From Candidatus Saccharimonadota bacterium (GTDB taxonomy: Bacteria; Patescibacteriota; Saccharimonadia; Saccharimonadales; JAXHMH01), in assembly GCA_034521515.1 (NCBI GenBank), contig JAXHMH010000002.1:512444-576443 (forward strand): a stretch of DNA of 64,000 nt, read 5' to 3'. Of this stretch, positions 601 to 52,212 are shown piece by piece. Each line of letters opens with the position of its first letter. The first letter of the stretch is position 1. The position numbers were made by a program, and so were the translations under genes. The notes below the pieces were generated by a model, which did not search any database, was not told the origin of the DNA, and worked only from the letters and a program-made list of their open reading frames with translations.

Positions 601-2115
601 ATGGATCCAATCACCTTGGGGCTTTTGGCTGCAGGTACTGTTGTTGGTTTTGGTGCAAGTAATATTGTTACAAAACGTCGCTTAGGCTCGGCCGAAGCAG
701 CTGCCGATAAAGAATTAAAAAAAGCTAAGAAAGAAGCCGAAAAGGCAGTCAACGAAGCTCGCGAAGAAGCGGCACAGCTCTCTGAAGCCGCGCGTAAAGA
801 AGAAACTTCGCGACGTAAAGAAATTAAAGAGGTTGAGCAAAGATTGCTTGGGCGTGAAGAAGCCCTTGATAAGAAGCTAGACGATATTGACAAGCGTGCC
901 GAGGCTCTACGCAAAGGCGAGTCGGAAGTTGAGGAGCTCAAGAACGAGATTCGTGATATACGCACTCGTCAGCAAGAAAAACTGGAGAAGATTGCCAAGT
1001 TGAGTAAAGCCGATGCGTCGGAAAAACTCATGAAGATGACCGAACGAGATATTCGTGACGATCTGACCGGATTAGTTTCCAAGATTCAAAATGATACCAA
1101 GGATCTGGCGGAAGAAAAGGCCGGTGCAATTTTAGTTGGTGCTATGGAACGAATGGCCAGTGAAGTAACGGCCGAACGCACCGTGTCCGCCATTAAGCTA
1201 GAAGACGAAGAAATGAAGGGTCGGATTATCGGTAAAGAAGGCCGAAACATCCAGGCGCTGCAGCGAGCTACTGGCGTTGATATCATGGTTGACGATACAC
1301 CAGGCATGATTATCTTAAGCAGCTTTGATCCGATTCGCCGTGAGGTGGCTCGTATGACTCTAGAAAAACTCATGAAGGACGGCCGTATTCACCCTGGACG
1401 CATTGAAGAAGTTCTAGAAAAGGCTCAAAAAGAAGTCCAAAAGGATGTCATGAGAGCCGGTGAAGATGCCGCCCGCGAGGTTGGTATTATCGGTATTCCT
1501 AAAGAAATATTACAGCTGCTTGGCGAGCTGAAATACCGTACTAGTTATGGTCAGAACGTGCTTAAACACTCTACCGAGATGGCGCATATTGCCGGAATCA
1601 TTGCCGAAGAAGTCGGGGCTGATGTAAAGACGTCTAAATACGCGGCACTGGTACACGATATCGGCAAAGCCTTAACCCACAAAATGGAAGGCAAGCACCA
1701 CCATATATCTGGTGAGATGCTGCGCAAATACGGAGCTCCAGAAGAAATTGCCCACGCCGCAGAAGCTCATCATGACGACATGGAGGCAACCACAACCGAA
1801 GCGCTAATCGTGCGAGTTGTTGACGCTATAAGTGCTGCGCGCCCTGGTGCCCGCAACATTAGCGCCGAGAATTTTGCGGAGCGCATGAAAGAGCTGGAAA
1901 ACGTGGCCAATAGTTTTGACGGTATCGAAAAGTCGTACGCGATTAGTGCCGGACGCGAAGTTCGCGTATTTGTGAGACCTAAAGACATCGACGATCTTTC
2001 GGCGATTAAGCTGGCTCGTGATATTGCTACCAAGATTGAGTCGAGCATGCAATACCCAGGTACTATCAAGGTCAACGTCATTCGTGAAACCCGCGCTATC
2101 GAGTTCGCTAAGTAA
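601..2115 (+). CDS. rny: Ribonuclease Y
   Basis: N-terminal TM helix and a K/E-rich coiled coil. KH motif KGRIIGKEGRNIQALQRATGVDI. HD domain (HSTEMAHIAG...LVHDIGKA...AHH). The 504-aa length fits RNase Y. Confidence 0.95.
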   Translation: MDPITLGLLAAGTVVGFGASNIVTKRRLGSAEAAADKELKKAKKEAEKAVNEAREEAAQLSEAARKEETSRRKEIKEVEQRLLGREEALDKKLDDIDKRAEALRKGESEVEELKNEIRDIRTRQQEKLEKIAKLSKADASEKLMKMTERDIRDDLTGLVSKIQNDTKDLAEEKAGAILVGAMERMASEVTAERTVSAIKLEDEEMKGRIIGKEGRNIQALQRATGVDIMVDDTPGMIILSSFDPIRREVARMTLEKLMKDGRIHPGRIEEVLEKAQKEVQKDVMRAGEDAAREVGIIGIPKEILQLLGELKYRTSYGQNVLKHSTEMAHIAGIIAEEVGADVKTSKYAALVHDIGKALTHKMEGKHHHISGEMLRKYGAPEEIAHAAEAHHDDMEATTTEALIVRVVDAISAARPGARNISAENFAERMKELENVANSFDGIEKSYAISAGREVRVFVRPKDIDDLSAIKLARDIATKIESSMQYPGTIKVNVIRETRAIEFAK

Positions 2116-2122
2116 TAAGCCT

Positions 2123-2446
2123 ATGAGTGCATCTTCATTAACCGATTTACAGCAAAAAATTGATGACATTCTGCAGGATTACGAAAAACCGTATTGGGAG
2201 CCTTTGTCTAACATTGCTCGGTTGGTCGAAGAAGTCGGCGAGGTAGCTCGTATCGTCAACCATCGTTATGGTGACAAGCCGAAGAAAACTACCGAAGAGG
2301 CTGATGACTTAGAGGATGAACTAGCTGATGTGTTATGGACGGTAATTTGCCTTGCAAACAGTGAAGGCATTGATCTAGATAAAGGCATGCAGCGGGCAAT
2401 TGATAAGTTGCTAGTGCGGGATAAAGATCGGTTCAAGAAAAAATGA
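2123..2446 (+). CDS. MazG-like nucleotide pyrophosphohydrolase
   Basis: ATG at 2123; the track ORF start at 2018 lies inside rny. The helices EEVGEVARIV and ELADVLWTVICLAN are typical of the MazG/YpjD family. The stop overlaps the next start (ATGA). Confidence 0.75.
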   Translation: MSASSLTDLQQKIDDILQDYEKPYWEPLSNIARLVEEVGEVARIVNHRYGDKPKKTTEEADDLEDELADVLWTVICLANSEGIDLDKGMQRAIDKLLVRDKDRFKKK

Positions 2447-3240
2447 ACATACTCTACGTTGGCGACATTATGGGCGAGACTGGCATAAATACCGTTGAAA
2501 AGTTGTTGCCGGATCTTAAAAAACAGCACCAGGTTGATGTGGTGGTTGCGCAGGCGGAGAACGTAACTGACGGCAAAGGTTTATCCAAAACCGACTTTCA
2601 GCGGTTGCAGCGAATTGGTGTAGATTTTTGCACTGGTGGTAACTGGACGCTTCAACTGGACGAGCTTAAGGACTATCTAAACGACCCGCAGCAACCGGTG
2701 GTACGCCCGGCTAACTATCCAGCTGGTACGCCAGGTCGGGGTTGGAAGTATCTGGAAGGCAAGCACGGCAAAATCTTAGTCATTAGTTTGCTCGGCAAAA
2801 TTGTCGGGCGCGATGCAGACAAACCAGTCGACAACCCGCTGATTGTAGTTGATGAAATTTTACAAGAAAACAAAGACGTGGAGCGGGCAGCAACTATAGT
2901 TAATTTTCATGGTGATTACAGCAGCGAAAAGCGCATTATCGGCTATTACTTAGACGGACGAGTCACGGCGGTTATAGGCGATCACTGGCACGTGCCTACG
3001 GCTGATGCGATGGTGCTACCTAAAGGCACGGCGCACATGACTGACGTTGGTATGTGTGGCAGCTTGCATTCTAGTTTAGGTGTGTCGCTCGACTCAGTTA
3101 TACCGCGCTGGAAGGACGGCACTATCACCAAAAATCAGCTGGCAACCGAAAAACCACATCAATTTAATGCTACAATCATCGAAGCGGATAAAAACGGCTT
3201 CGCTATTAGCGTTGAACACATCCAACGCATCATTACCTAG
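2443..3240 (+). CDS. ymdB: YmdB-like metallophosphoesterase (2',3'-cyclic-nucleotide phosphodiesterase family)
   Basis: Motifs ILYVGDIMGETG, AENVTDGKG, NFHGDYSSEK and GDHWHVPTAD. Lies next to rny, as in Firmicutes. Confidence 0.85.
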   Translation: MNILYVGDIMGETGINTVEKLLPDLKKQHQVDVVVAQAENVTDGKGLSKTDFQRLQRIGVDFCTGGNWTLQLDELKDYLNDPQQPVVRPANYPAGTPGRGWKYLEGKHGKILVISLLGKIVGRDADKPVDNPLIVVDEILQENKDVERAATIVNFHGDYSSEKRIIGYYLDGRVTAVIGDHWHVPTADAMVLPKGTAHMTDVGMCGSLHSSLGVSLDSVIPRWKDGTITKNQLATEKPHQFNATIIEADKNGFAISVEHIQRIIT

Positions 3241-3309
3241 GCACATTTTGTTTTTAGAAAAAGCAGAAGAGCTTTGACCTCAAACTGTTTAACAGATATA
3301 ATTACACCA

Positions 3310-6300
3310 ATGAAGTGGTTGTGGCTACGGAGGGTAGCAGGTCAGGTCGGGGTGGTGGCGCTATTGCTCGGAATAGCGTTTTTTGCGGCCACACAATCAG
3401 CAGCTGACGGCGCCTGGATGGACGACGACTGGCAACACAGAAAGCTCATCACGATCGATGAGACAATGGTCTCTGGTGGGAGTGATTTAGCGAACTTTCC
3501 TATTTTGGTATCAGTTACCGACACGGACCTACGGAGTACCGATTTTGGCGGCGGGGTGGCAAATGTAGATGCCAACGACATTGTATTTACGCTCGATGAC
3601 GGCACAACACTGCTTGCGTATGAACTAGAGAGTTATAACGACCAAACTGGGGATTTGAATGCGTGGGTACGACTGCCATCCCTGTCTGCGACCATCGAGA
3701 CAGAATTGTACATCTACTACGGTAATGAGCTGGCAACGAACCAACAAGATCCGGACAATGTCTGGCCAGCCGATTATGTTATGGTGCAGCACCTTCAAGA
3801 GCAATCAGGATCTGGGAATTTTTTGGCAGATTCAACCAGCGTCGGGAACGACGGTATCCCTTTGGGTACGACACCAGCATTTAACTCCAGTTCCAGGATT
3901 AACGGAGGCTGGGGGTATGGTGGCAATAACCAGCAACGCATCGAAATAGCTGATAATACCAGTTTGCAGTTAGCGGATTCATTTACAGCAGAAGCATGGG
4001 CGCGGTTTACAAGTTGGACGACGCCAGACCATAACCCTGTTCTATGGAAAGGGTCGCAAATCGGGTGGGGAAATAATTATAACTTTAGAATCGCAGTTAG
4101 TAACGGAGCCCCTACTTGGGGGGTGACATGTAGTGCTGAGGGTTGGTTTGCTGGGGGTACGGTATCCTTGAATACCTGGAACCACTACGTTTTGACGTTT
4201 GACGGTACAACCGTCCGAGGTTTCTTAAATGGCACAGAAGTTGGTTCGACAACCGACTGTAGCGGACAATCGCTTAATACTATGGCGGGGAACCCGGTGC
4301 GTAGTGGTTTTGGGTACCGTAACAGTCCAACCCAGGAAACGCACATGGCGGGTGATGTTGATGAGCTACGGATAGCCAACCAAGCCCAGAGCTCAGCATG
4401 GATTCAGACTGGGTATAACAACATGAATGCCCCGGAGACGTACATTGGTTTTGGCCCCGAAGAAGACCGGGCGCCCGCCGTCCCCCAAACCCCCACTCTC
4501 CACGACTCAGGTGGCTCCACCCAACTGGCCTTTAACAACAGCCGTATAGATACTCAAACGCCTACCTTCCGTGTCTCAACTCCTGCAGATGACAACTACA
4601 ACCAAATCCAGTTAGAACTCAACACCGAATCTGACTTCTCTGGCACCAGCTACACCCAAACAACCACCGGTGCCTACATCACCAACGACCAATACAATAT
4701 CCCTGCCAATAGTCTTTCTCCAAGTCTCCCCACTACCGATAATGCAACCTACTACGTCCGTGTCCGAGCCTCCGCCGACGGAGGCACGACCTGGGGCAAC
4801 TGGTCTACAGACAACGCCTGCTGTGACCCATGGAGCTTTACCTACAGCAGTACAGAGGATGAGATGAGTTGGTTCCAGCAAACAGACGTCCAGTTTGACA
4901 CAAGCACGCTAGATGCTGCAGTTACGAATGATGGCGTGCTATTAGCGGCAAGCTCGTTTTCGGCAACTGGCGGGACCATTACTACCATTGGAGATAGCCG
5001 GTATCACGTTTTTACAAGCGATGGCAATTTGACGGTGACTGGGGATTCGTCAACAGGTGAGGTGCTAGTAGTCGGTGGTGGCGGTGGTGGCGCTGGCTCA
5101 GCAGGAAACGCTGGTCGTGGCGGTGGTGGCGCTGGTGGACTAGTCCATGATGAAAACTTTTCACTCAATAGCGGGAGTTATTCAGTTACCGTAGGCACCG
5201 GTGGAGCTGGCGGTGCAGCTTCTGGAGCAGACGGCAGCCAAGGGAGTAACTCATCATTTGATAGTCTTGTCGGAATAGGCGGCGGTGGCGGTGCTGGTTT
5301 GAATACCAACGGGGGAGCTGGTGGGTCTGGTGGTGGTGCCGGAGTGAACAATCTTACTCTGTCAGGTGGCGCTGCGCAGCAGCCAGGTTCAAGCTCCGGT
5401 GGATTTGGTAGTCAGGGCGGCACAGCGGATATATATGCGGTGGGTGCTGGTGGCGGCGGTGGCGGTGGTGCCGGTGCAGCAGGCGGTGCGGGCACGGCAA
5501 GTGCTGGCGGTTCGGGCGGTGCAGGCTTAGAGTTTTCTCAATTTTCTGCGGTTGGTGGATCACCTGCTGGATGGTTTGCTGGTGGTGGCGGCGCATCAGC
5601 TGGTACAACCGGGGGGCCGGGCGGTACTGGCGGTGGTGGTACAGGGTCAACTGATACCTCTTCAGCACAGAGTGGCGTAACAAGTACAGGTGGAGGTGGT
5701 GGCGGTTCGCAGGGTACCGGTGGCGGTGGCGGTGATGGTGGCTCTGGCGTCGTCATTGTTCGTTATGATGTATCGTTTGCTCCGACTGGCAGTGTTACTT
5801 CAGAACCAATCAATTATTCAAGCGTTCCAAGTGCTCTCACGTGGGACGAAATGGTCTGGGAGTCTGATGAGTCTAATGGGTCAATAGAAATGCGGTTGCT
5901 GTACTCAGATTCCGGTACATGTGATGCACTGGTTTCCGACACAGATCTAAGCGGAAACAGCACTGGTTTCACGACTTCGCCAGTCGACATAACGGGGCTT
6001 GATAGCAGTACGTATCAACAGCTTTGCCTCGAGGCTACGCTCACAGAAGACGGTGGATCGCCCGTGCTGCAAAGCTGGGGCATACGCTGGGAGAGGTTCT
6101 TGCCCGCCGTCCCCCAAACCCCCACTCTCCACGACTCAGGTGGCTCCACCCAACTGGCCTTTAACAACAGCCGTATAGATACTCAAACGCCTACCTTCCG
6201 TGTCTCAACTCCTGCAGATGACAACTACAACCAAATCCAGTTAGAACTCAACACCGAATCTGACTTCTCTGGCACCAGCTACACCCAAACAACCACCGGT

Positions 6301-9285
6301 GCCTACATCACCAACGACCAATACAATATCCCTGCCAATAGTCTTTCTCCAAGTCTCCCCACTACCGATAATGCAACCTACTACGTCCGTGTCCGAGCCT
6401 CCGCCGACGGAGGCACGACCTGGGGCAACTGGTCTACAGACAACGCCTGCTGTGACCCATGGAGCTTTACCTACAGCAGTACAGAGGATGAGATGAGTTG
6501 GTATCAAGCAGATGGAGCGCAATTTGCCACAAATGAGCTCACTGATACGGTTGTTGACGGTGATGATGTGGTGTTGGGCGCGGTCGGATCAGGGATTACT
6601 AACCCGACACAATTGACGACATATACGTCGACAACCAATCAGGCATCTGCAACAACCGCGAGTGTCTCGCCGGCCGGCAACGCCTTGATAGTTGTGCTGG
6701 TGGGCACCGGCAGTACTACAACACACACGCATAATGCCGTGACGAGCACCTTTGGCACAGTGGGCGGGTTTACGCAGCGCACCACACAACTCGGTACGAG
6801 CAATACCTTTTACAGGTATTCAATTTATACTGCTGTGACAACGGCAAGTCCAGGCTCTGGTACCATTACCGTTAATTACAGCGCTAATACCCCAAACCAA
6901 GTGCATTATGTATTGCAAGTGGCGGATGGTTTTGACACATCCGACCCGGTAATTCAGACGATTACAGCGACAACCGCAGCAACCACGCTGTCGATGGGCT
7001 TTCCTGCTACTCCGCAAACAAGCTCGCTCGTAATTGGCGGTATTGCCACGAGGCGAGGGACAGATATTGCAGGCACAAGTGGCTATACAACGTTTGCAAA
7101 TATTGATACCGGTGGGGGCACAAATGCCCGCGCGCAATCCCAATATCGTGTCGGTGACGCCGGAATAGGACTAAACTGGACAGGAGACGGGACCCTAGAA
7201 AATATGGTTGCTGGAGCGGTAGAGATACGTGCTGAAACAGCAGATGATGCAACGATTATGTCATCAGAAATCTTTTATGACTACGCACGGAGCCCGCAGA
7301 CTTGGGGTGAGGCGTCGTTTACGTCAAATGAAACAAATGGTGATATCAAATTACGCCTGTATCATAGTTTATCCACAGCCTGCGATACACAGATTCCGAA
7401 TGGAGATCTAGCAGGAAACACCGTTGGCTTTGACGCAACAGATGGATCAATTGACTTATCAGGGCTTAACACGACAACATATGACCAAATTTGTATACAG
7501 GCTACATTGTCAGATGTCGCAGGTACGCCATATTTACAGAGCTGGTCAGTTTCGTGGGAGACAGAACCCAACTTTGCGCCGAATGAACCGTGGGCTTTGG
7601 CTCAAACCAAGACCGATACCTCGCCTTTAGCGGTTGGTGATTGGACGAATGAAAGCTCAGTACGCTTTACAGCCAGTGCGACTGATTTTGATGCAACAGG
7701 TGACTTAGAGCTCTGTGTTGAAGCTCGCCCAATCGGTATCAGCTTCTTGGATGTGCAGAATGACTGTGGTGAACCCGTGGAGTACCAAGCTCCGATTTAC
7801 GAGTGTGACCCAACCGGGAATGCGCTATTTGAAAAGTATGATGGAGTAGCCGGCACAGACATTGCATCACTCTATGCAGCTCCGGCTTTCCCGAATAGTC
7901 CTAGTTCAAATCAAACGATAAGTGGCGGTTCGCTGGAGGGTCCAGTAAATATTGATGATACGTATGGTGGTCGTCTGTCGGCCTTGATTTGCCCACCACA
8001 AGATGGTGATTACACATTTTGGTTGTCGGCCGACGATAATGCTGAGCTGCGCATAAGTACAGATGTGAACCCGGCAAATGTCACAACTATAGCTTCCGTA
8101 CCTGGCTGGTCTGGCGTAGATGAGTGGATAATGTACCCTGAGCAGCAATCTGCACTCGTCACGCTTGAAGCAGACCAGTATTACTACATTGAAGCCAATT
8201 ACAATGAAGGAGCTGGTGGTGACCATGTTCAGATTGGGTGGACATTGCCCGACACGACAGTTGACCGACCGATTTCCGGTACGTACTATTCATTGCCTTC
8301 CGAAGAAGAAGAGCGAACGCTCATTTCTGGCGAGATTCCAACATTAACCGCAGCGCTTAACCTGGCGGATGCGGATAGCTATCATTGGCAAGCTCGGGTG
8401 CGTGACCAAGGCGGCCTCTACTCGAGCTGGGTAAACTTTGGTAGTAACCCAGAAGAGGAGCGTGACTTTGGGATAGACACAACTGCACCAACTAGTGGGA
8501 GTGTATACGATGGCGATGACCTTGGAGAGGACATGATGTTTAATGATGGGTCACTAGATACACTGTCGGCGAACTGGGAAGGCTTTGACTTTGATGTATC
8601 AGGAACGGTTGGCTATGAATATTCAATCGGTACAACGCCGGGTGGTACAGACACAGTTGATTGGACGGATGTCGGTACGGATACCTCGTTTACTATCAGC
8701 AGTCTAGAGCTCCAGACAAACCACGTTTACTACACGAACATTCGGGCTACAGATGTTGCTGGCAATACAGCGGTAGTGAGTTCCGATGGTCAATATGTTT
8801 TACCGACGCTGAGTTTTAGTGTATCGACTTCAAACATTACATTTGAGAATCTTGGTGCCAGTAATGACCGCACAGATTCTGAGGATGTCACGCTTACGAC
8901 CTCCACGAATGCCTACGCTGGCTATACGGTTCGGGCTCGAGCAACAGGGCAACTCAACGCAAATGGGTCGCATGATCTTCCATGGTTTAGCGCAGGGTCG
9001 TATGCTTCTCCGGTTGCCTGGGAGGATAGCAGTACCTGGGGGTACGGCTACACCTCAAGCGATACCAATGTGCAAGGTTCCAATAAGTTTGGCGATGGAA
9101 CATTGTTTGCTCCATTTACCACGCTTGCGCCTGGCGATATTGTGGCTGATAACACCGACAACACAACTGGTGTATCTATACAGGACGAGGAGTTTACAAT
9201 CACGCACCGGGTGGTTGCCCCAGAAGACCAGCCAGCTGGTTTCTACTCCACGACAATTTATTACACAGTGACAGCCGATTACTAA
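3310..9285 (+). CDS. Giant secreted multi-domain surface protein (DUF2341-like, LamG-like, Gly-rich, PA14-like and WxL-like C-terminal modules)
   Basis: Uninterrupted ORF; the track starts at TTG 3274, and ATG 3310 gives MKWLWL plus a TM/signal segment. N-terminal WQHRKLITID...LYIYYGN resembles DUF2341, and WNHYVLTFDG...DVDELRIAN resembles LamG. There is a long GGxGG region. GDYTFWLSADDNAELRIS...YYYIEANYNEGAGGDHVQIGW resembles PA14. The C-terminus is homologous to that of ORF 10393..11412. Confidence 0.85.
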   Translation: MKWLWLRRVAGQVGVVALLLGIAFFAATQSAADGAWMDDDWQHRKLITIDETMVSGGSDLANFPILVSVTDTDLRSTDFGGGVANVDANDIVFTLDDGTTLLAYELESYNDQTGDLNAWVRLPSLSATIETELYIYYGNELATNQQDPDNVWPADYVMVQHLQEQSGSGNFLADSTSVGNDGIPLGTTPAFNSSSRINGGWGYGGNNQQRIEIADNTSLQLADSFTAEAWARFTSWTTPDHNPVLWKGSQIGWGNNYNFRIAVSNGAPTWGVTCSAEGWFAGGTVSLNTWNHYVLTFDGTTVRGFLNGTEVGSTTDCSGQSLNTMAGNPVRSGFGYRNSPTQETHMAGDVDELRIANQAQSSAWIQTGYNNMNAPETYIGFGPEEDRAPAVPQTPTLHDSGGSTQLAFNNSRIDTQTPTFRVSTPADDNYNQIQLELNTESDFSGTSYTQTTTGAYITNDQYNIPANSLSPSLPTTDNATYYVRVRASADGGTTWGNWSTDNACCDPWSFTYSSTEDEMSWFQQTDVQFDTSTLDAAVTNDGVLLAASSFSATGGTITTIGDSRYHVFTSDGNLTVTGDSSTGEVLVVGGGGGGAGSAGNAGRGGGGAGGLVHDENFSLNSGSYSVTVGTGGAGGAASGADGSQGSNSSFDSLVGIGGGGGAGLNTNGGAGGSGGGAGVNNLTLSGGAAQQPGSSSGGFGSQGGTADIYAVGAGGGGGGGAGAAGGAGTASAGGSGGAGLEFSQFSAVGGSPAGWFAGGGGASAGTTGGPGGTGGGGTGSTDTSSAQSGVTSTGGGGGGSQGTGGGGGDGGSGVVIVRYDVSFAPTGSVTSEPINYSSVPSALTWDEMVWESDESNGSIEMRLLYSDSGTCDALVSDTDLSGNSTGFTTSPVDITGLDSSTYQQLCLEATLTEDGGSPVLQSWGIRWERFLPAVPQTPTLHDSGGSTQLAFNNSRIDTQTPTFRVSTPADDNYNQIQLELNTESDFSGTSYTQTTTGAYITNDQYNIPANSLSPSLPTTDNATYYVRVRASADGGTTWGNWSTDNACCDPWSFTYSSTEDEMSWYQADGAQFATNELTDTVVDGDDVVLGAVGSGITNPTQLTTYTSTTNQASATTASVSPAGNALIVVLVGTGSTTTHTHNAVTSTFGTVGGFTQRTTQLGTSNTFYRYSIYTAVTTASPGSGTITVNYSANTPNQVHYVLQVADGFDTSDPVIQTITATTAATTLSMGFPATPQTSSLVIGGIATRRGTDIAGTSGYTTFANIDTGGGTNARAQSQYRVGDAGIGLNWTGDGTLENMVAGAVEIRAETADDATIMSSEIFYDYARSPQTWGEASFTSNETNGDIKLRLYHSLSTACDTQIPNGDLAGNTVGFDATDGSIDLSGLNTTTYDQICIQATLSDVAGTPYLQSWSVSWETEPNFAPNEPWALAQTKTDTSPLAVGDWTNESSVRFTASATDFDATGDLELCVEARPIGISFLDVQNDCGEPVEYQAPIYECDPTGNALFEKYDGVAGTDIASLYAAPAFPNSPSSNQTISGGSLEGPVNIDDTYGGRLSALICPPQDGDYTFWLSADDNAELRISTDVNPANVTTIASVPGWSGVDEWIMYPEQQSALVTLEADQYYYIEANYNEGAGGDHVQIGWTLPDTTVDRPISGTYYSLPSEEEERTLISGEIPTLTAALNLADADSYHWQARVRDQGGLYSSWVNFGSNPEEERDFGIDTTAPTSGSVYDGDDLGEDMMFNDGSLDTLSANWEGFDFDVSGTVGYEYSIGTTPGGTDTVDWTDVGTDTSFTISSLELQTNHVYYTNIRATDVAGNTAVVSSDGQYVLPTLSFSVSTSNITFENLGASNDRTDSEDVTLTTSTNAYAGYTVRARATGQLNANGSHDLPWFSAGSYASPVAWEDSSTWGYGYTSSDTNVQGSNKFGDGTLFAPFTTLAPGDIVADNTDNTTGVSIQDEEFTITHRVVAPEDQPAGFYSTTIYYTVTADY
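4473..4873 (+). repeat. Copy 1 of a 401-bp perfect direct repeat inside the giant CDS
   Basis: Base-for-base identical to 6102..6502 by my reading. Offset is 1629 bp (543 codons, in frame). Encodes APAVPQTPTLHDSGG...STEDEMSW. Confidence 0.9.
6102..6502 (+). repeat. Copy 2 of the 401-bp perfect direct repeat inside the giant CDS
   Basis: Identical to 4473..4873. The domains flanking each copy are homologous but diverged. Confidence 0.9.
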
Positions 9286-13974: not shown

Positions 13975-14155
13975 CGGGGTGTGGCCCCGCCTGTCTGGCC
14001 GAGCCCCCTGTCTTTCTGGCAAGAAGGCCAGGCAGGACGGACAGGGCAGTTGGCTAGCGTGAGAAGTGCCAGTGGCACTTCGCAAGGGAATCCACTCTTG
14101 CAAACTTGTTTGCTAAGATGTGGTGACGGGGTCGCAGAATGTGACCGCGGTTTGG
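13975..14155 (+). pseudogene. Interrupted 5'-half copy of tRNA-Pro
   Basis: cggggtgtggc, gcagttggctagcg and cgcggtttgg match tRNA-Pro positions 1 to about 36, in order. They are separated by inserts of 60 nt (13986..14045) and 86 nt (14060..14145). There is no matching 3' half. Confidence 0.75.
13986..14045 (+). repeat. 60-nt hairpin insertion element, copy A
   Basis: About 90 percent identical to 28161..28220 by my reading. Removing it restores a contiguous tRNA-Pro sequence (gtggc|gcag). Confidence 0.8.
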
Positions 14156-14205: not shown

Positions 14206-14282
14206 CGGGGTGTGGCGCAGTTGGCTAGCGCGCGCGGTTTGGGACCGTGAGGTCGAAGGTTCGAGTCCTTTCACCCCGACCA
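14206..14282 (+). tRNA. tRNA-Pro (anticodon TGG), CCA encoded
   Basis: Manual cloverleaf: acceptor CGGGGTG/CACCCCG, anticodon loop TTTGGGA, T arm GAAGG-TTCGAGT-CCTTT, 77 nt. Confidence 0.9.
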
Positions 14283-14384
14283 ATAAAAAAAGGTTACCTT
14301 GTGTAGCCTTTTTTTATTGGTTAGAGTCAACGGCTCGGTTCTTCGACACAGATTTGCACCAGCAAATATGCAAGTCGAAGGTTC
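14268..14384 (+). repeat. 117-bp direct repeat, copy 1 (tRNA-Pro 3' end, bidirectional terminator and hairpin)
   Basis: Matches 14633..14749 with one mismatch. Contains the 14-nt inverted repeat ccaataaaaaaagg...cctttttttattgg. Confidence 0.85.
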
Positions 14385-14564: not shown

Positions 14565-14647
14565 GTCGAATGGTTCGGTCGTTAGTCACAGACCCCAGCG
14601 TTAGCGGGCGTCTGGATTAACGTGCGTTGTCTCTTTCACCCCGACCA
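14565..14647 (+). pseudogene. Second, diverged tRNA-Pro T-arm/acceptor fragment split by a 54-nt insert
   Basis: gtcgaatggttcg, then an insert (14578..14631), then tctttcaccccgacca. Confidence 0.65.
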
Positions 14648-14749
14648 ATAAAAAAAGGTTACCTTGTGTAGCCTTTTTTTATTGGTTAGAGTCAACGGCT
14701 CGGTTCTTCGACGCAGATTTGCACCAGCAAATATGCAAGTCGAAGGTTC
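14633..14749 (+). repeat. 117-bp direct repeat, copy 2
   Basis: See 14268..14384. Offset is 365 bp. Confidence 0.85.
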
Positions 14750-16534: not shown

Positions 16535-18951
16535 GACAGCTTGGTATCGATTTTGCATCTGACAGAGCCGCCAAAGCACGCGTTGCAGCGGTATTCGACA
16601 TTAAGCCTTTGCGTGCGCTGCTGTGGGTTATTGCTATTGCATCATCTATTGCGTGGTTGGGCTTGCTTGTCTGGGCTAACCAACCACTGGCTCACCTAAT
16701 AGCGTTACCCATTACTTTTTCAGTTATGCCGCTGTTTTGGTACTACGGCGAGCTAAGAAGTTTAGAACCGACCGCCAGTCTGGATCAGGCAGATGATGTC
16801 AGCCAAATACTGGATAGACGGATGTTGGCAAAAATACGTCGCGATACTACACCCCAGCAACTATGTGAAGTGATAGCCAAGCAGCCTGGTGGATATTTCT
16901 TCGGTTCACGGTACGGTATTGCCTACGACATGTTACGCACTGGGTTGAGTGATAAGTCAGAAGACATGGCGACGTTTTGGCAACAGGCACTAGCGTACGC
17001 TCAGCAAGCCGGCGATAAACAAGTCTCTAGTTATACGGTTGCGGCTGCTCTCGTAAAGCAGCTGCCTAACGCGGATAATTATTTGGCGTCAATACACCTA
17101 GACGAAAGCGACATAGTTGCCGGTCTAAAATGGCAACTGCACATAGACGACGTATTTGAACAGATAAAACAACGTAAGCACTACGGTGGGATCGGTCGAG
17201 ACCTAAGTTTTGGTTGGGCGCCACTGCTCAATAATATTGGGTTAAACCTGACTGACGGCATTCAACGTGGGGGCATGTTGCATCGTTCGGTGCAAAGCCA
17301 CAGAGGAATTGTTGATCAGATGATGCATGTACTAGCACAACCTGGTAAACGTAACGCCACGTTGGTCGGTGAAGTTGGGGTCGGTAAAACTACGTTGGTT
17401 CATGCCCTAGCACAGCGGCTCCTGGAGGAGCCTGAATCGGCTCCGGAAGTGTTGCGCTATAACCAAATTATTGCACTAGATCCTACGCATCTTATAGCTA
17501 ACGCCAAGGGCAGAGGGCAGCTTGAGGAGTTGTTGATCCACATATTCAACGAAGCGATAAAAGTAAAAAATGTCGTGCTGTTTTTGGATAATGCCGAACT
17601 GTTCTTAAAAGAAGGCACCGGCAGTGTTGATTTATCAAGCTTGCTATTGCCTGTTTTGGAAGACGGGGCACTGCGTATAGTCCTGTCGCTTGATGAGCAA
17701 GAATGGTTGCGCTTGAGTCAGAGCAACCCTGGGCTTGCCCAGCTTTTGAACCGAGTGGTGGTCAAGCCTCTTGAAGAAGACGAGGCAACCCAGGTCATGG
17801 AGGATCAAGTGTTACTCCTGGAAGGGCAGTACAAGGTGGTGTACATGTATCCGTCGCTTAAAGAGGCCTATAAGTTAGCCGAGCGCTATGTTCGTGAGCT
17901 GGCTATGCCGGGCAGCGCGATAAAATTGCTTGAAGCAGCAGCTGGTTTTCCGGAACAAAAGCATTTTATAACTGCTCGCTCACTTCAGCAGGCAGCCGAG
18001 AAATCTTTTGACGTTAAAGTGCAAACTGCCAGCACGGCAGAGGAAAAAGACGTGTTGCTCAATCTAGAAGAGAAAATTCACAAGCGTATGGTTAACCAGA
18101 GTCGTGCGGTTACGCTGGTTAGCGATGCACTGCGGCGAGCCCGGGCAGGCGTTAGGAACCAAAATCGTCCTATAGGTACGTTTCTGTTCCTTGGCCCGAC
18201 CGGTGTTGGTAAAACTGAGTTATCTAAAGCAGTGGCTGATGCGTATTTTGGCGGTGAGGATAGGATGGTGCGAATTGACCTCAACCAATACTCGCAATCT
18301 AAGGACACTTCACGGCTACTGGCAGTAGGCGCCAATGATCCGCACAGTCTATGTGCGCAGATTATAAAACAGCCGTTTAGTGTTGTGTTGTTGGATGAGA
18401 TTGAGAAGGCGCACGACAGTGTGTTAAACGTTCTGTTGCAGATGCTTGATGAGGGAGTGCTTCGTGATGAAGAAAACAAGCCGGTGAGCTTCAGAGACGC
18501 GATTATAGTCGCAACCAGTAATGCCGGGGCTGATAAAATTAGGCAGCATATCGACAAAGGCGAAGCTTTAGAGAAGTTCGAAGAAGCCTTCACCAATGAG
18601 CTAATTGATAGCAATATCTTTAAACCGGAGTTTATTAACCGTTTTGATGAAATCGTGCTATTCCGTCCACTTACTCAAGAAGAGTTAGGGCAGATTGTTG
18701 ATTTGCAATTGCTACAGCTTAATAAACGGCTCGGGGCACAAAAGATTAATGTGGCGCTTACAGATGAGGCTAAACAGCTGCTTTTGAGCGTTGGGTATGA
18801 TGCTCGTCTAGGGGCAAGGCCGTTGCGGCGGGCAATGCAGCGAGCGGTAGAGAATGTGGTTGCTCAGAAGATGCTCAAAGACCAAGCTGCACCCGGCCAG
18901 ACCATCCAGCTTGATGCTCCTGAGCTGCAAGAAGCCCTTAAAGAGAGATAA
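16531..18951 (+). CDS. Membrane-anchored Clp/Hsp100-family AAA+ ATPase with a degenerate first nucleotide-binding domain
   Basis: Two N-terminal TM helices. D1 has Walker A GEVGVGKT but Walker B reads VVLFLDNAE. D2 is intact (GPTGVGKTE, VVLLDEIEKAH, ATSNAG). Has a ClpA/B-type C-terminal domain (ARPLRRAMQ). Confidence 0.8.
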   Translation: MRQLGIDFASDRAAKARVAAVFDIKPLRALLWVIAIASSIAWLGLLVWANQPLAHLIALPITFSVMPLFWYYGELRSLEPTASLDQADDVSQILDRRMLAKIRRDTTPQQLCEVIAKQPGGYFFGSRYGIAYDMLRTGLSDKSEDMATFWQQALAYAQQAGDKQVSSYTVAAALVKQLPNADNYLASIHLDESDIVAGLKWQLHIDDVFEQIKQRKHYGGIGRDLSFGWAPLLNNIGLNLTDGIQRGGMLHRSVQSHRGIVDQMMHVLAQPGKRNATLVGEVGVGKTTLVHALAQRLLEEPESAPEVLRYNQIIALDPTHLIANAKGRGQLEELLIHIFNEAIKVKNVVLFLDNAELFLKEGTGSVDLSSLLLPVLEDGALRIVLSLDEQEWLRLSQSNPGLAQLLNRVVVKPLEEDEATQVMEDQVLLLEGQYKVVYMYPSLKEAYKLAERYVRELAMPGSAIKLLEAAAGFPEQKHFITARSLQQAAEKSFDVKVQTASTAEEKDVLLNLEEKIHKRMVNQSRAVTLVSDALRRARAGVRNQNRPIGTFLFLGPTGVGKTELSKAVADAYFGGEDRMVRIDLNQYSQSKDTSRLLAVGANDPHSLCAQIIKQPFSVVLLDEIEKAHDSVLNVLLQMLDEGVLRDEENKPVSFRDAIIVATSNAGADKIRQHIDKGEALEKFEEAFTNELIDSNIFKPEFINRFDEIVLFRPLTQEELGQIVDLQLLQLNKRLGAQKINVALTDEAKQLLLSVGYDARLGARPLRRAMQRAVENVVAQKMLKDQAAPGQTIQLDAPELQEALKER

Positions 18952-19015
18952 ACGCTCGCATATCTGTTATAATCTAGGCGTTCAGGCTAGTTTTATTGCC
19001 TTAATAGGCTAAGTT

Positions 19016-19390
19016 GCGGGTGTCGTATAATGGCTAATATACCTGCCTTCCAAGCAGGCGATGCGAGTTCGCCCCGGTCATACGACGGGGCGCCCTATCG
19101 GATGATAGGGCGATTCTCAAGAAGCAACAATTAACAATCTACGGGTGTCGTATAATGGCTAATATACCTGCCTTCCAAGCAGGCGATGCGAGTTCGCCCC
19201 GGTCATACGACGGGGCGCCCTATCGGATGATAGGGCGATTCTCAAGAAGCAACAATTAACAATCTACGGGTGTCGTATAATGGCTAATATACCTGCCTTC
19301 CAAGCAGGCGATGCGAGTTCGCCCCGGTCATACGACGGGGCGCCCTATCGGATGATAGGGCGATTCTCAAGAAGCAACAATTAACAATCT
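19016..19390 (+). repeat. Three tandem 125-bp units, each a truncated tRNA-Gly copy with a 41-nt T-loop insert
   Basis: Units start at 19016, 19141 and 19266 and are identical except for the first base. Each holds tRNA-Gly nt 1-56, a two-hairpin insert, attctc, and a 22-nt spacer. Confidence 0.9.
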
Positions 19391-19465
19391 GCGGGTGTCG
19401 TATAATGGCTAATATACCTGCCTTCCAAGCAGGCGATGCGAGTTCGATTCTCGCCACCCGCACCA
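19391..19465 (+). tRNA. tRNA-Gly (anticodon TCC), CCA encoded
   Basis: Acceptor GCGGGTG/CACCCGC, anticodon loop CTTCCAA, T arm GCGAG-TTCGATT-CTCGC, 75 nt. Confidence 0.9.
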
Positions 19466-19498
19466 AATTATTGCTTCGCCACCCTAATCGATTATTCC

Positions 19499-19762
19499 AT
19501 GTTCTACGTATACTTCCTCAAGCTTAATAATGGCCAGATATGCACCGGCTACACCGAAAACCTAAAAAGACGCAAAAGTGAACATGATTTGGGCAAGGTT
19601 GCTTCAACTATGTCCCGACTTCCTTGTTGTTTAGTAGGATACGAAGCGTATGCTTTAAAGACAGATGCGATGCGACGAGAGAAGTTTCTTAAAACAACAG
19701 AAGGTAAAAAACTTTTTAAACAACAATATCGTGATATAATCACCTCTGTTGTGCCTCGGTAG
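19499..19762 (+). CDS. Small GIY-YIG nuclease-family protein
   Basis: ATG 19499 gives MFYVYFLKLNNGQICTGYTENLKRRKSEH (GIY-YIG core). The last 10 nt overlap the next tRNA. Confidence 0.8.
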   Translation: MFYVYFLKLNNGQICTGYTENLKRRKSEHDLGKVASTMSRLPCCLVGYEAYALKTDAMRREKFLKTTEGKKLFKQQYRDIITSVVPR

Positions 19763-19828
19763 CTCAGTGGATAGAGCAGGACGGTTCTAACGTCTTGGCC
19801 GGGGGTTCGAATCCCTCCCGAGGTACCA
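19753..19828 (+). tRNA. tRNA-Arg (anticodon TCT), CCA encoded
   Basis: Acceptor GCCTCGG/CCGAGGT (G1-U72), anticodon loop GTTCTAA, T loop TTCGAAT, 76 nt. Confidence 0.85.
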
Positions 19829-19834
19829 CGTGAT

Positions 19835-20341
19835 ATGAAACAGATTAGTGTTAATGAGTTATATCAAGAAGGGTACAGTTATACTCTCGATGAACCAGCT
19901 GGGAAGAATTTTCATCCTGATTTTGAACCGGAGCTGACACCGAAAGAGATGCTGCAACTTGGTGTTTTTGGTGGAGATTACTTTCAGGCTATTCCAAACG
20001 AATTCCCAGAAGACTGGTTTGAGGGGGCTAAGTTATCCGAAATTGGCACGGCTGATAAAAACCTGAATTATTTTAAGGTAAACGCCAGCCAGTCACTCAA
20101 GGAGTGGCAAAGAAAGGGTTGGATATATTTTGAAGATCCTAAAGGTTGGTTTTTGTGGTACTGCCGCTACTATCGTGGCAGGCGAATACCAGAGGAGGAT
20201 GAGCGGCAAATCAAGCGCTGGCGAGCGATGAATCGGCATAAATCACAGGTAGAAAAGTTTTGTGAACCAGGCGATATGACATGTCGCCCACGCCAGCGGC
20301 AGGCGTTGCTACACTGGGCATACGATTCCCGCAAAATCTAA
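19835..20341 (+). CDS. Conserved hypothetical protein (168 aa)
   Basis: Clean ORF with a W/R-rich C-terminal half (GWFLWYCRYYRGRR...QIKRWRAMNRH). I cannot name a family. Confidence 0.6.
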   Translation: MKQISVNELYQEGYSYTLDEPAGKNFHPDFEPELTPKEMLQLGVFGGDYFQAIPNEFPEDWFEGAKLSEIGTADKNLNYFKVNASQSLKEWQRKGWIYFEDPKGWFLWYCRYYRGRRIPEEDERQIKRWRAMNRHKSQVEKFCEPGDMTCRPRQRQALLHWAYDSRKI

Positions 20342-20376
20342 AGAATAGGTTTAGCCCAACAAAACCCAAGGTAATT

Positions 20377-20961
20377 ATGAATAGTCAGAGCAGCGGGTTC
20401 GGAGATACACCAGAGACCGTCCAATTGACCATCTACAGGGATGGCTGCTACCATTGTTGTATGTCAACACGTCCTTGCCAGGTTTGTAACAAAAAATTTT
20501 ACGCCAAACCAAGTCATGTTCAGAAGGGTTGGGGTAAATTTTGTTCAAAAGCCTGCCAGTATACAGGGCAGAAGACGGGGCAGACTTATCCTTGCCACCA
20601 ATGTAAACAGCAGGTATACAGGACTGTCAAAGACAGGAGGCGCTCTAAGAGCGGAAAATTCTTTTGCGGTAGGTCCTGTCAAACAGTATGGAGGAACAGT
20701 ATGCTATACGCTGGCAAGCGTCACTCCAACTGGAACGGTGGCAAGGCATCGTATAGGAGCATCTTACTTAAGACAGGATTACCTAGAGTTTGCACTAGAT
20801 GCCGGTTAACTGATACACGGATTTTAGCAGTACATCATAAGGACAGAAACCGTAACAATAATGACGCATCGAATTTGATATGGCTTTGTCATAATTGCCA
20901 TTATTTAGTTCATCATTATGTTAATGAAGGAGCTGGGTTTTTGGCTCCTCGGACTATATAG
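20377..20961 (+). CDS. HNH endonuclease with Cys-rich N-terminal region
   Basis: LAVHHKDRNRNNNDASNLIWLCHNCHYLVHH is an HNH motif, and several CxxC pairs lie upstream. The start is uncertain (20377 or a later Met). Confidence 0.8.
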   Translation: MNSQSSGFGDTPETVQLTIYRDGCYHCCMSTRPCQVCNKKFYAKPSHVQKGWGKFCSKACQYTGQKTGQTYPCHQCKQQVYRTVKDRRRSKSGKFFCGRSCQTVWRNSMLYAGKRHSNWNGGKASYRSILLKTGLPRVCTRCRLTDTRILAVHHKDRNRNNNDASNLIWLCHNCHYLVHHYVNEGAGFLAPRTI

Positions 20962-27578: not shown

Positions 27579-27905
27579 ATGGCATATAAGGACATTGAGG
27601 ATAGCAGGGCAGCCATCAGACGCCATTACTATGAAAACAAAGAGAAATACTTAGCAAAGAACAAACTTAGACGCCAAAAAATAAAAGAGTATGTGAATAA
27701 AATTAAGGCTTCCACTCCATGTGCAGATTGTAAGAATTCCTACCCATATTACGTTATGGATTTTGACCACTTGAGAGACAAGACGACTATAATTAACAAC
27801 TTTGTGAGAGCCTCGAATTTATCTGGCTTAAAAAAAGAGATAAAAAAGTGCGAAATTGTTTGCGCAAACTGCCATAGAATGAGAACATTTAATCGTATTG
27901 AGTAA
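27579..27905 (+). CDS. Small HNH endonuclease
   Basis: CADCKNSYPYYVMDFDHLRDK...CEIVCANCHRMRT. Confidence 0.75.
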   Translation: MAYKDIEDSRAAIRRHYYENKEKYLAKNKLRRQKIKEYVNKIKASTPCADCKNSYPYYVMDFDHLRDKTTIINNFVRASNLSGLKKEIKKCEIVCANCHRMRTFNRIE

Positions 27906-28030: not shown

Positions 28031-28087
28031 TTTCTGCTCGATGCTCGAGCCAGGGTTTGAACCGTCAAGCGAGCTTATGCGAGCGGA

Positions 28088-28229
28088 GGTTCGGCGTATG
28101 TGAGTCCGCTGGTCAGCGGACGAACGAAGAAGCCCATCTTTGATGGGCGCTATCCTGCCGCCCGCCTATCTGACCGAGTCTCCTGTCTTTCTGACAAGAA
28201 GGCCAGGCAGGACGGACAGGGGTGTACCA
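28088..28229 (+). pseudogene. tRNA-Arg 3' fragment split by two inserts
   Basis: ggttcg, a 58-nt insert (28094..28151), atcctgccg, a 60-nt insert (28161..28220), then ggtgtacca. Removing the inserts gives the T-loop-to-CCA sequence of the upstream tRNA-Arg. Confidence 0.75.
28161..28220 (+). repeat. 60-nt hairpin insertion element, copy B
   Basis: Homologous to 13986..14045. Excision restores cctgccg|ggtgtacca exactly. Confidence 0.8.
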
Positions 28230-28315
28230 ATCAAAGAGTCTATGCTTGGCATGGACTCTTTGATAGCCTGTTTAGTGCTTAGTTTTTAGTAAGTAAAAAT
28301 GATAGAATTAAACTA

Positions 28316-51270: not shown

Positions 51271-51307
51271 TGCAAGGTTAGACCTTGCAACAAGGTCTAA
51301 CCTTGCA
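51271..51307. repeat. REP-like hairpin flanking the transposase gene (left)
   Basis: tgcaaggttagaccttg caa caaggtctaaccttgca: 17-bp stem, 3-nt loop. Confidence 0.8.
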
Positions 51308-51967: not shown

Positions 51968-51971
51968 AATA

Positions 51972-52006
51972 ACAAGGTCTAACCTTGCAACAAGGTTAGA
52001 CCTTGT
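51972..52006. repeat. REP-like hairpin flanking the transposase gene (right)
   Basis: acaaggtctaaccttg caa caaggttagaccttgt: the same arms as the left copy, in swapped order. Confidence 0.8.
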
Positions 52007-52065
52007 TGTGGACGGTGTCAAGGTGTTGTGATATATTGACCCGAGTAAATAAGCTTTATTGACGA

Positions 52066-52140: not shown

Positions 52141-52179
52141 AAGAAAAAGCCCCATGCAGTTTGTTTGGGGCTTTTTCTT
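52141..52179 (+). terminator. Rho-independent terminator after tRNA-Glu
   Basis: 14-bp stem aagaaaaagcccca / tggggctttttctt. Confidence 0.75.
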
Positions 52180-52212
52180 TGGTGGTTTCCCGCAGGGAAA
52201 CCGAACCCCGAG

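Follow-up and report, generated by a model that had tools for sequence, protein, structure and literature searches.

A 64,000-nt stretch of Candidatus Saccharimonadota DNA (GenBank assembly GCA_034521515.1, contig JAXHMH010000002.1, positions 512,444 to 576,443; hereafter the window) carries, directly ahead of its intact tRNA-Gly(UCC) gene, a tandem array of three truncated copies of this gene, all broken in the T-loop by the same 41-nt insert. The insert, termed module Y below, is a conserved structured module that is also found in distant Patescibacteria, where it accompanies genes of small GIY-YIG nucleases. With somewhat more confidence than doubt, the array is read here as a tandem triplet of a miniature form, devoid of an open reading frame (ORF), of a GIY-YIG element that inserts into the tRNA T-loop and brings along a spare 5' part of the tRNA.

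Structure of the array

Three 125-bp units occupy positions 19016-19390 of the window, and the intact tRNA-Gly(UCC) follows without a gap at 19391-19465 (Table 1). Tandem Repeats Finder gives a period of 125 bp with 3.4 copies, 99% matches and a score of 853 at 19017-19446. Every unit is composed of tRNA-Gly nt 1-56, the 41-nt insert (CCCCGGTCATACGACGGGG followed by CGCCCTATCGGATGATAGGGCG), the hexanucleotide ATTCTC and the 22-nt spacer AAGAAGCAACAATTAACAATCT. The truncated units start at 19016, 19141 and 19266, and their sole difference is base 1, which is G, A and A, respectively, and G in the real gene. ATTCTC corresponds to tRNA nt 57-62, i.e., the remainder of the T-loop plus 3 nt of the T-stem. 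Just these 6 nt of the tRNA follow Y, the acceptor 3' strand being missing, both in the window units and in a complete element of another genome (L178, described below; L numbers denote the sequences used for comparison).

An earlier note, made from the letters of this DNA, had described a tandem array with this period, units identical but for the first base, the same unit content with unrelated sequence at the 3' end, and a last unit that alone is a complete tRNA. Direct reading and the repeat finder agree with that description, and ARAGORN and Rfam both call a tRNA in the last unit only. The note also saw in the near-perfect identity either very recent amplification or selection. The 100% identity of the units past their first base indicates that the expansion is recent. 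Its remark that the spacer motif AACAATTAACA recurs beside tRNA-Pro was correct as well. Of the four occurrences of the motif in the window, three belong to the array, and the fourth, at 14180, precedes tRNA-Pro by 15 nt.

Beyond the 3' end of the functional gene, a second copy of tRNA-Gly nt 61-69, TCGCCACCC, is found. Within 18900-19900 this exact 9-mer is present only at 19451, inside the tRNA, and at 19476; the latter copy is probably a remnant of an older displaced 3' end. The D-loop of tRNA-Gly reads TATAAT, a perfect -10 hexamer, and the array thus has four evenly spaced -10-like boxes (19026, 19151, 19276 and 19401).

Table 1. Array units, neighbouring genes and related sites, with positions in the window.
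Feature	Position	Strand	Remarks
Extended -10 promoter box TGTTATAAT (putative)	18965-18973	+	42 nt upstream of unit 1
Unit 1, tRNA-Gly nt 1-56, G first	19016-19071	+	100% identity to nt 1-56 of the real gene
Module Y, copy 1	19072-19112	+	R2 covariance model, 67.4 bits, E = 2e-18
Hairpin A of Y copy 1	19072-19090	+	CCCCG/CGGGG stem, loop GTCATACGA
Hairpin B of Y copy 1	19091-19112	+	9-bp stem, loop GGAT
ATTCTC and 22-nt spacer AAGAAGCAACAATTAACAATCT, unit 1	19113-19140	+	
Unit 2	19141-19265	+	tRNA nt 1-56 (A at position 1) 19141-19196; Y 19197-19237; ATTCTC 19238-19243; spacer 19244-19265
Unit 3	19266-19390	+	tRNA nt 1-56 (A at position 1) 19266-19321; Y 19322-19362; ATTCTC 19363-19368; spacer 19369-19390
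Functional tRNA-Gly(UCC), CCA encoded	19391-19465	+	ARAGORN (Gly-UCC); Rfam tRNA, 68 bits
TCGCCACCC, second copy of tRNA-Gly nt 61-69	19476-19484	+	10 nt beyond the 3' end of the gene
GIY-YIG nuclease gene, 87 aa, single-domain UPF0213 type	19499-19762	+	MDZ7744659.1; Pfam PF01541, 3.2e-8
tRNA-Arg(UCU)	19753-19828	+	First 10 nt are the last GIY-YIG codons
Y-like hairpin B (GCCCATC TTT GATGGGC), degenerate	28132-28148	+	In a 3' fragment of tRNA-Arg(UCG), adjoining the T-loop remainder on its 5' side

Module Y: structure and distribution

Module Y is an inverted doublet of hairpins of the form CG-stem-TCATNCGA-stem-CG, in which hairpin A has the motif TCATNCGA on its top strand and hairpin B has it on its bottom strand. 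Folding of the insert, a check that the earlier note had called for, gave two stable hairpins, at -29.3 kcal/mol (z = -3.4) for RNA and -16.5 kcal/mol (z = -3.7) for DNA, with 0 of 200 shuffles as stable in either case. In the RNA fold, the two hairpins are closed by the remnant T-stem. When six copies from four genomes are compared, 96% of the cells are paired, and double compensatory changes are seen in 7 of the 14 pairs; none of the 500 shuffles was as good, and the slid controls collapsed.

Genomic context was fetched for five GIY-YIG homologues, which gave 13 loci. The R2 covariance model of Y scored 26-78 bits in all 13 of them and 67 bits on each unit of the window, and no match above 20 bits was obtained on approximately 165 other loci. 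All well-preserved copies of Y lie between (G)GGTTCG and A(A/T)TCC, and the insertions are bounded by the T-loop CG on both sides. Within the window, R2 detects Y in the array only. Apart from the array, the pattern GCCC(N)ATC...GAT(N)GGGC is matched in approximately 291 kb of Saccharibacteria sequence only by a degenerate hairpin B at 28132-28148, which is a second, degenerate Y-family site of the window at the same relative position.

The covariation and the invariant loop motifs indicate that something selects for the structure of Y. It may act as DNA or as RNA, since it folds stably in both forms and scores almost as high on the opposite strand. The interpretation given in the earlier note can be retained for the truncated copies, the T-loop insert and the functional last copy. 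The insert itself is the part to be revised, being no idiosyncratic insertion but a conserved module that distant Patescibacteria also have.

Several known RNA arrangements were considered for the insert and rejected. A hammerhead-like three-way junction does not fit because the junction strands (TTCG, none and AAT) mismatch the hammerhead core. Y is not a spliced tRNA intron, as it is not flanked by both exons and its removal gives no full tRNA. A split, permuted or trans-spliced tRNA is likewise excluded, since there is one 3' half only and there are no complementary leaders. Rfam recognises nothing but the seven tRNAs when the window is searched at the gathering threshold, and nothing but tRNAs in the relative L167 at E <= 1. 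The IMG/VR viral contigs gave no matches to hairpin B, to the degenerate Y pattern or to the GIY-YIG protein, i.e., no sign of a phage vehicle. The spacer 18-mer AGCAACAATTAACAATCT was dropped as a phage link, because its four matches in viral contigs were all in AT-rich DNA, had no tRNA nearby and were about as many as expected by chance.

Complete elements in other Patescibacteria

In other Patescibacteria, complete elements have a common layout: a displaced 5' part of a tRNA, Y, 6 nt of the T-arm, a GIY-YIG ORF and the intact tRNA. The ORF encodes 83-91 aa, and Y is located 8-50 nt upstream of its start codon. The cleanest example is provided by L177-L182, in which a 5' copy of tRNA-Ser(GGA) ending in GGAGGTTCG is followed by Y, AATCCC plus 10 nt, the GIY-YIG gene from ATG to TAA and intact tRNA-Ser(GGA). 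For this group, the homologue is recorded under a Jorgensenbacteria genome. In L178, the displaced 5' part and the functional one differ at 6 of 69 positions, and the changes preserve pairing. The two parts are therefore similar to two alleles rather than to products of random decay, which fits the arrival of one of them from elsewhere.

In L171, nt 1-74 of tRNA-Ser(GCT), ending in GGTTCG, precede CCATGTCATACGACATGG CGCCCTATCGGATGATAGGGCG, after which the sequence continues with AATCCC..., a further 34 nt, the GIY-YIG homologue and, last, an intact tRNA-Ser(GCT). In hairpin B, this element and the window agree in 22 of 22 positions; the loop of hairpin A is kept and the changes in its stem are compensatory. 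The same sequence contains several ORF-less Y copies within partial 3' copies of tRNA-Ser, and its tRNA cluster at 1950-3480 (Arg, Ser, Ser, Ser) is full of copies of Y and of partial copies of tRNA-Ser. A chimeric pseudo-tRNA in L171 combines a 5' part of Ser(GCT) with a 3' part of the Ser(CGA/UGA) type, suggesting exchange between Y-bearing sites. In L176 (Komeilibacteria) and in L172-L175 (another Saccharibacteria), a degenerate Y lies directly upstream of the GIY-YIG gene and tRNA. This distribution, together with the analogy to element X described below, suggests that the Y element may be mobile.

The earlier note had hinted that the nuclease gene beginning 34 nt past the array could matter, and the hint proved right; Y co-occurs with this GIY-YIG family. 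The PF01541 match of the window protein is above the gathering score and spans residues 1-70 of 87. In the PDB, the protein is matched by 1zg2, 'UPF0213 protein BH0048' (3.8e-6), and by 1ywl (1e-3). A homologue search gave 225 matches, mostly in Patescibacteria and many on very short contigs; identity was 58-74% among the 120 best of the 225. The stop codon of the window gene (TAG) coincides with U8-A9-G10 of tRNA-Arg(UCU), the overlap being 19753-19762. The same 10-nt overlap is observed with tRNA-Lys in L172-L175 (2767-2776 in L172 and equivalent positions in L173-L175), and in L171, L176 and L178 the tRNA begins 1-7 nt past the stop codon. The GIY-YIG ORF of the window is physically tied to the downstream tRNA-Arg, not to tRNA-Gly.

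Two of the window tRNAs are preceded by ORFs of HNH endonucleases. These lie at 20281-20961 (phrog_1271, 9e-14) and 27579-27905 (phrog_3106, 8e-24), 53 and 12 nt upstream of tRNA-His and tRNA-Arg(UCG), respectively. Together with the GIY-YIG gene, a nuclease gene is present directly upstream of three of the seven window tRNAs; the orthologous loci of relatives contain none of these three genes.

Ancestral locus and transcription

The conserved order in relatives is a Clp-like ATPase gene, tRNA-Gly(UCC), tRNA-Arg(UCU) and tRNA-His, which form a tight cluster. In L082, where the ATPase is 62% identical, tRNA-Gly lies 50 nt after the ATPase gene and the three tRNAs are spaced by 8 and 61 nt, with no ORF in the 8 nt between tRNA-Gly and tRNA-Arg. 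The array of the window is flanked by the genes of MDZ7744658.1 and MDZ7744659.1 (Candidatus Saccharibacteria), and the ORFs around it are the AAA+ Clp-like ATPase, the GIY-YIG nuclease, an unknown ORF of 168 aa and an HNH ORF. The array, the GIY-YIG gene, the 168-aa ORF and the HNH ORF were found at the orthologous locus in none of the relatives examined, and tblastn placed the GIY-YIG gene in no orthologous Saccharibacteria locus. The array is lineage-specific; relatives carry one clean tRNA-Gly. The comparison with related genomes proposed in the earlier note has a twofold outcome. The orthologous locus is free of arrays, and the same architecture is found at other tRNAs in other genomes.

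Relatives show irregularities of their own at tRNA genes. In L167, tRNA-Gly (8476-8549) is inverted relative to the cluster. In L014 (6909-7079), a 5' pseudo-copy of tRNA-Arg(UCU), comprising nt 1-41 and 47-59 and ending in the T-loop, is located 28 nt before the real gene and is followed by inverted T-loop sequence. In L008 (313-582), nt 56-77 of tRNA-Pro are duplicated together with the terminator, 172 nt downstream.

The CTGTTATAAT box is common to unit 1 and to the single tRNA-Gly genes of the relatives L168 and L082. This conservation suggests that the extended -10 box TGTTATAAT ahead of unit 1 is the ancestral tRNA-Gly promoter. A consensus scan of 18850-19900 for promoters and terminators gave nothing, the promoter scan requiring both hexamers. 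The inter-unit spacer has no promoter box for the functional tRNA-Gly, which is thus presumably transcribed through the array. Since unit 1 lies behind the ancestral promoter, its tRNA part is taken to be what was once the 5' part of the gene, now displaced, with its end at the T-loop TTCG. For the same reason, the extra DNA would have been added within the T-loop of the gene and not by simple upstream duplication; the whole stretch between the T-loop break and the start of the functional 3' part would then be an addition inside the gene.

A plain tandem duplication of leader and tRNA is ruled out, as the inter-unit spacer bears no relation to what precedes unit 1. A more general version of such an event, i.e., slippage duplication of tRNA-Gly with random filler that was later amplified and involved no mobile element, appears highly improbable. 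Tandem direct repeats do expand readily, the units are fully identical, and the array is absent in all the relatives examined. This explanation is nevertheless contradicted by the fact that the supposed filler is a conserved T-loop module in unrelated genomes with compensatory changes. The unrelated sequence ahead of unit 1 tells against it as well, and similar fragments broken in the T-loop flank tRNA-Pro, tRNA-Arg and tRNA-Glu of the window.

The position of the array inside the tRNA-Gly transcription unit, with no terminators, could also mean that it is a functional RNA feature kept by selection. Through the Y hairpins, and perhaps through its tRNA-like 5' pieces as well, the transcript might serve as a processing or stability signal, as an operator of the GIY-YIG mRNA or as a decoy for tRNA-binding factors. 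Such a role would be in line with the strong covariation of Y, with its loop motifs that are invariant across phyla and with the stable RNA fold closed by the remnant T-stem. In complete elements, the distance of Y to the GIY-YIG start is typical for an element of the 5' untranslated region. In the array, however, no ORF follows Y, and the orthologous locus of relatives works without an array. The nearly equal score of the opposite strand and the inverted doublet fit a double-stranded or cruciform DNA site at least equally well. Furthermore, three identical copies indicate recent expansion and not long maintenance. A selected RNA function of the array is therefore considered unlikely, although less so than a local accident.

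Proposed origin of the array

A complete element would consist, from left to right, of Y placed after the T-loop TTCG, a few nucleotides of the T-loop and T-stem remainder, a linker, the GIY-YIG gene and a fresh tRNA 5' part reaching to TTCG. Its insertion would push the 5' part of the resident tRNA upstream, where the dead copy would end in TTCG and Y. The intact gene would be rebuilt from the 5' part borne by the element and the resident 3' part, so that the element would be harmless without splicing. Unit 1 of the window would represent the resident 5' part behind the ancestral promoter, and each 125-bp repeat (Y, ATTCTC, 22 nt and tRNA-Gly nt 1-56) would be an element minus its ORF. The repeat is phased after TTCG as complete elements are, with the 22-nt spacer standing where they have the linker and the GIY-YIG ORF; the units can therefore be read as ORF-less miniatures.

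Each insertion would regenerate an intact T-loop beside the resident 3' part and produce 56-nt direct repeats 125 bp apart, by which unequal exchange or out-of-register break repair could add or remove units. The three copies most likely would have arisen in this manner, via unequal homologous recombination or out-of-register repair between the 56-nt repeats. The breaks may come from the GIY-YIG nuclease encoded downstream, which would act on the T-loop once it is intact again. The position of the insertions (TTCG/A) and the precedent of SegB, discussed below, suggest that this protein may cleave T-arm DNA. The functional tRNA-Gly would be transcribed from the old promoter via a leader of approximately 375 nt and freed by normal 5' processing.

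A number of observations weigh against this reading. The GIY-YIG gene of the window lacks a Y directly ahead of it and is joined to tRNA-Arg, not to tRNA-Gly, so that the local history must be more complex than one insertion. The 22-nt spacer has no significant similarity to the GIY-YIG ORFs and linkers (shuffle p = 0.08-0.95), and with the tRNA-Pro spacer included, p was 0.08-0.99 against six GIY-YIG genes and their 3' tails; the unit may, but need not, derive from an ORF-bearing element by deletion. No further Pfam, NCBIfam or PHROG domain, including a DNA-binding one, was found in the 87-aa protein, which makes its T-arm-specific cleavage uncertain, as it lacks the DNA-binding domain that distinguishes SegB. 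Of the five other contexts, one (L170) has no tRNA beside its GIY-YIG gene. Among the loci examined, no pair of filled and empty alleles was found for the element of Y and GIY-YIG. The first bases G-A-A-G differ from what three successive insertions from one donor would give. This pattern needs at least one mutation in a dead copy together with unequal exchange, which means that recombination contributed at least partly. Finally, the full three-unit array is carried by one assembly only, and the copy number rests on it.

The last point raises the question of an assembly artefact, in which a single truncated unit was over-expanded. A 125-bp repeat is near short-read length, and the independent short-read contigs break at both borders of the array. 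These are the Logan contigs L166 and L001 (SRR26473340), both 100% identical to the window. The former ends at window position 19046, 30 nt inside unit 1, and the latter begins at 19417, 30 nt ahead of the point where the copies diverge from the tRNA (nt 56/57). Breaks of this kind are the behaviour of a k = 31 graph at repeat borders, which means that the reads themselves contain both repeat and branch. Assemblers tend to collapse identical repeats and not to expand them, and the pattern of G and A in the first bases requires at least two distinct truncated units. The same architecture was moreover found independently in other genomes. An artefact in the array or its copy number is accordingly judged improbable.

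Comparison with known systems

Phage T4 encodes, among its clustered tRNA genes, the free-standing GIY-YIG homing endonuclease SegB; the recognition site of this enzyme is centred on the T-arm sequence GGTTCRANTCC, and its cuts leave 2-nt 3' overhangs (PMC2330249). Like segB, the GIY-YIG gene of the window has tRNA genes on either side and is missing from the corresponding cluster in relatives. The Y insertions fall inside the same T-arm motif, bounded by the T-loop CG. Unlike the window protein, which is an 87-aa catalytic domain of the UPF0213 type, SegB has multiple domains (it was expressed from a 687-bp fragment). No hairpin doublet or duplicated tRNA 5' part has been described for SegB elements, which lie between genes and not inside the T-loop. 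The host of SegB is a phage, whereas the genome studied here is that of a cellular Patescibacteria member, and for its protein cleavage can only be supposed.

Fragments of tRNA genes are usually ascribed to integrating elements, the attP site of which carries a replacement tRNA segment (PMC9897764). The Y element resembles them in that its insertion would be harmless because the displaced part is supplied, that a partial direct repeat of the tRNA is left and that the breakpoints are in the T-loop. Integrative elements, on the other hand, measure kilobases, code for an integrase and, as a rule, replace the tRNA at its 3' part. In the Y element, it is the 5' part that is replaced; its enzyme is a GIY-YIG nuclease, and its unit has 125 bp, or about 0.4 kb if the ORF is included.

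These similarities make it reasonable to ask whether the array is the scar of an integrase-driven element, such as a prophage or island, which entered the att site of tRNA-Gly and was mostly deleted before its remnants were amplified. Partial tRNA copies beside intact tRNAs are the standard signature of integration (PMC9897764), and several tRNAs in the window and in relatives bear 3' fragments that start in the T-loop, each with its own terminator. No integrase or recombinase was identified among the ORFs around the array, however, and the duplicated part is the 5' one (nt 1-56), with the intact gene at the downstream end; in the usual case it is the 3' part. The repeat unit is merely 125 bp and contains no ORF. 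In all contexts seen, Y accompanies GIY-YIG genes and not integrases, and neither Y nor the GIY-YIG family was found in the IMG/VR viral contigs. The probability of such a scar is considered low, lower than that of a selected RNA function.

In the rRNA genes of the candidate phyla radiation (CPR), non-intron insertions have been described, some of which encode GIY-YIG proteins, while many are short and ORF-less (PMC11270868). They share with the Y element the same bacterial radiation, the occurrence of GIY-YIG genes in insertions belonging to neither group I nor group II introns and the abundance of short ORF-less inserts at the tips of stem-loops in structured RNA genes. They differ in that the interrupted rRNA gene is functional, and tRNA is not mentioned (PMC11270868); in the Y element, the interrupted copy is dead and an intact one is rebuilt alongside. 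The described tRNA introns of Patescibacteria belong to group I and are located in the anticodon loop at position 35/36 (PMC13011429).

Module Y also bears a resemblance to miniature inverted-repeat transposable elements (MITEs) and REPINs, which are hairpin elements that are non-autonomous and are moved in trans. It has an ORF-less miniature of an ORF-bearing element, an inverted hairpin doublet and compensatory stems. Unlike MITEs and REPINs, Y is not dispersed, has a strict T-loop context and carries a part of its target gene, and its partner enzyme belongs to no known MITE or REPIN transposase family. The tyrT locus of Escherichia coli contains a 178-bp unit repeated about three times downstream of tRNA-Tyr, each with the last 19 nt of the tRNA, an array reportedly described by Egan and Landy in 1978 and explained by unequal recombination. 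The array of the window is similar to tyrT in being a tandem array of about three units at a tRNA gene with a partial tRNA copy in each unit. It differs from it in that the tyrT copies are 3' fragments situated downstream, for which neither a T-loop hairpin module nor an association with a nuclease is known.

The literature searches turned up no description of a T-loop GIY-YIG or hairpin element. The Y element is best placed as a relative of homing-endonuclease elements and of tRNA-targeting insertions with a replacement segment.

Element X and other elements at tRNA genes

A second structured element, termed X, has approximately 90 nt and three hairpins with compensatory changes in 16 of 30 pairs (model R1). 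X has no Rfam family, and none of the ribozyme or intron families in Rfam matches either Y or X. Sites of X are found at 14058-14147 of the window, at five places in L167 (2490-2580, 2801-2890, 9404-9494, 9685-9775 and 10722-10826) and in L169 (7217-7307), L172 (2915-3004), L174 (1093-1183) and L175 (719-808). In all cases, X lies inside tRNA copies broken in the T-loop and situated beside intact genes of tRNA-Pro, -Arg, -His or -Lys. A 181-nt insertion with X is present in L172, L174 and L175 and absent from L173. It consists of a new terminator, a spacer, the 5' strand of the T-stem, X and a 22-nt repeat of tRNA-Lys nt 56-77. This polymorphism directly shows that structured elements associated with the T-loop and carrying a duplicate tRNA part are mobile in Saccharibacteria. 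The X copy upstream of tRNA-Pro is orthologous in the window and L167 and has compensatory changes between them, which marks it as an old copy that has been maintained.

A 60-nt GC-rich element (CCCGCC...GGACGGACAGG) occurs in the window at 13986-14045 and 28161-28220. Its two copies are 92% identical and are inserted precisely with no target duplication. The first lies between nt 11 and 12 of the tRNA-Pro 5' pseudo-copy, and the second splits the 3' acceptor strand in a fragment of tRNA-Arg(UCG) (CCTGCCG/GGTGTACCA). It looks like a third small mobile element.

The surroundings of tRNA-Pro comprise an upstream pseudo-copy and three downstream partial 3' copies (14265, 14459 and 14630), each with a terminator-like hairpin. 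A 117-nt repeat after the gene (14268-14384 and 14633-14749) is 99% identical, and its exact end is the start of the short-read contig L166. The fragment at 14374 is split by about 70 nt directly after GGTTCG. Following tRNA-Glu (52141-52440) and tRNA-Arg(UCG) (28040-28230), 3' fragments are broken right after GGTTCG by hairpin-rich inserts. In these fragments, the complementary CGAACC is found upstream of each GGTTCG, and TCCGC...GCGGA hairpins preceded by TTTGGT(G/A)G recur.

Next to tRNA-Glu, on the minus strand, the window encodes an IS200-like transposase (51338-52021; Pfam Y1_Tnp, 1.4e-11), which is also matched, below the cut-off, by the NCBIfam model of the REP-associated tyrosine transposase (RAYT, 3.2e-12). 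It is flanked by two perfect 37-nt, AT-richer hairpins in opposite orientation (51271-51307 and 51971-52007) that are unrelated to Y. A homologue with 47% identity is present in L009. The existence of this Y1 transposase, together with the structure of Y as an inverted doublet of short hairpins with covarying stems, might suggest that Y is a REP/REPIN-type element moved by the transposase and that the link to GIY-YIG is coincidental. Against this stand the unrelated hairpins at the transposase and the restriction of Y in the window to the array, with no intergenic dispersal, on account of which RAYT was rejected as the mobilising enzyme. Moreover, Y is present in all 13 GIY-YIG loci, where no Y1 transposase was called among the neighbouring genes. 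Very little weight can be given to this possibility, as little as to a local accident.

Biological meaning

If the proposed explanation holds, the array would be the trace of a selfish element that, although no intron, can reside in an RNA gene that is essential and present once, because it supplies anew what it displaces. Islands driven by an integrase achieve the same replacement, and the Y element would do so at about one tenth of their size and with a nuclease. Small UPF0213 GIY-YIG proteins are very common in CPR genomes, and homing directed to the T-arm, with Y as the partner site, can be put forward as a hypothesis for them.

A broader proposal is made more tentatively, and the balance is somewhat against it. 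In this proposal, Y and the single-domain UPF0213 GIY-YIG protein would constitute an undescribed T-loop homing element spread throughout Patescibacteria and harmless owing to its spare tRNA 5' half. The nuclease would use Y, as a DNA cruciform or as RNA, for a recognition handle, and ORF-less miniatures would be mobilised in trans. They would grow into tandem arrays because the insertion regenerates an intact target at its own 3' end.

There are practical consequences as well. In Patescibacteria, the annotation of tRNAs will be confused by partial copies that contain T-loop inserts, and repeats of this type break short-read assemblies exactly at tRNA genes, as happened with L166 and L001. Arrays and inversions of neighbouring tRNAs, such as that in L167, indicate that tRNA clusters are reshaped by these elements in genomes that are supposed to be streamlined. 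Should the homing proposal be true, the T-loop of tRNA, which accommodates Y, X and other inserts, would be a general landing pad for small selfish elements in reduced genomes.

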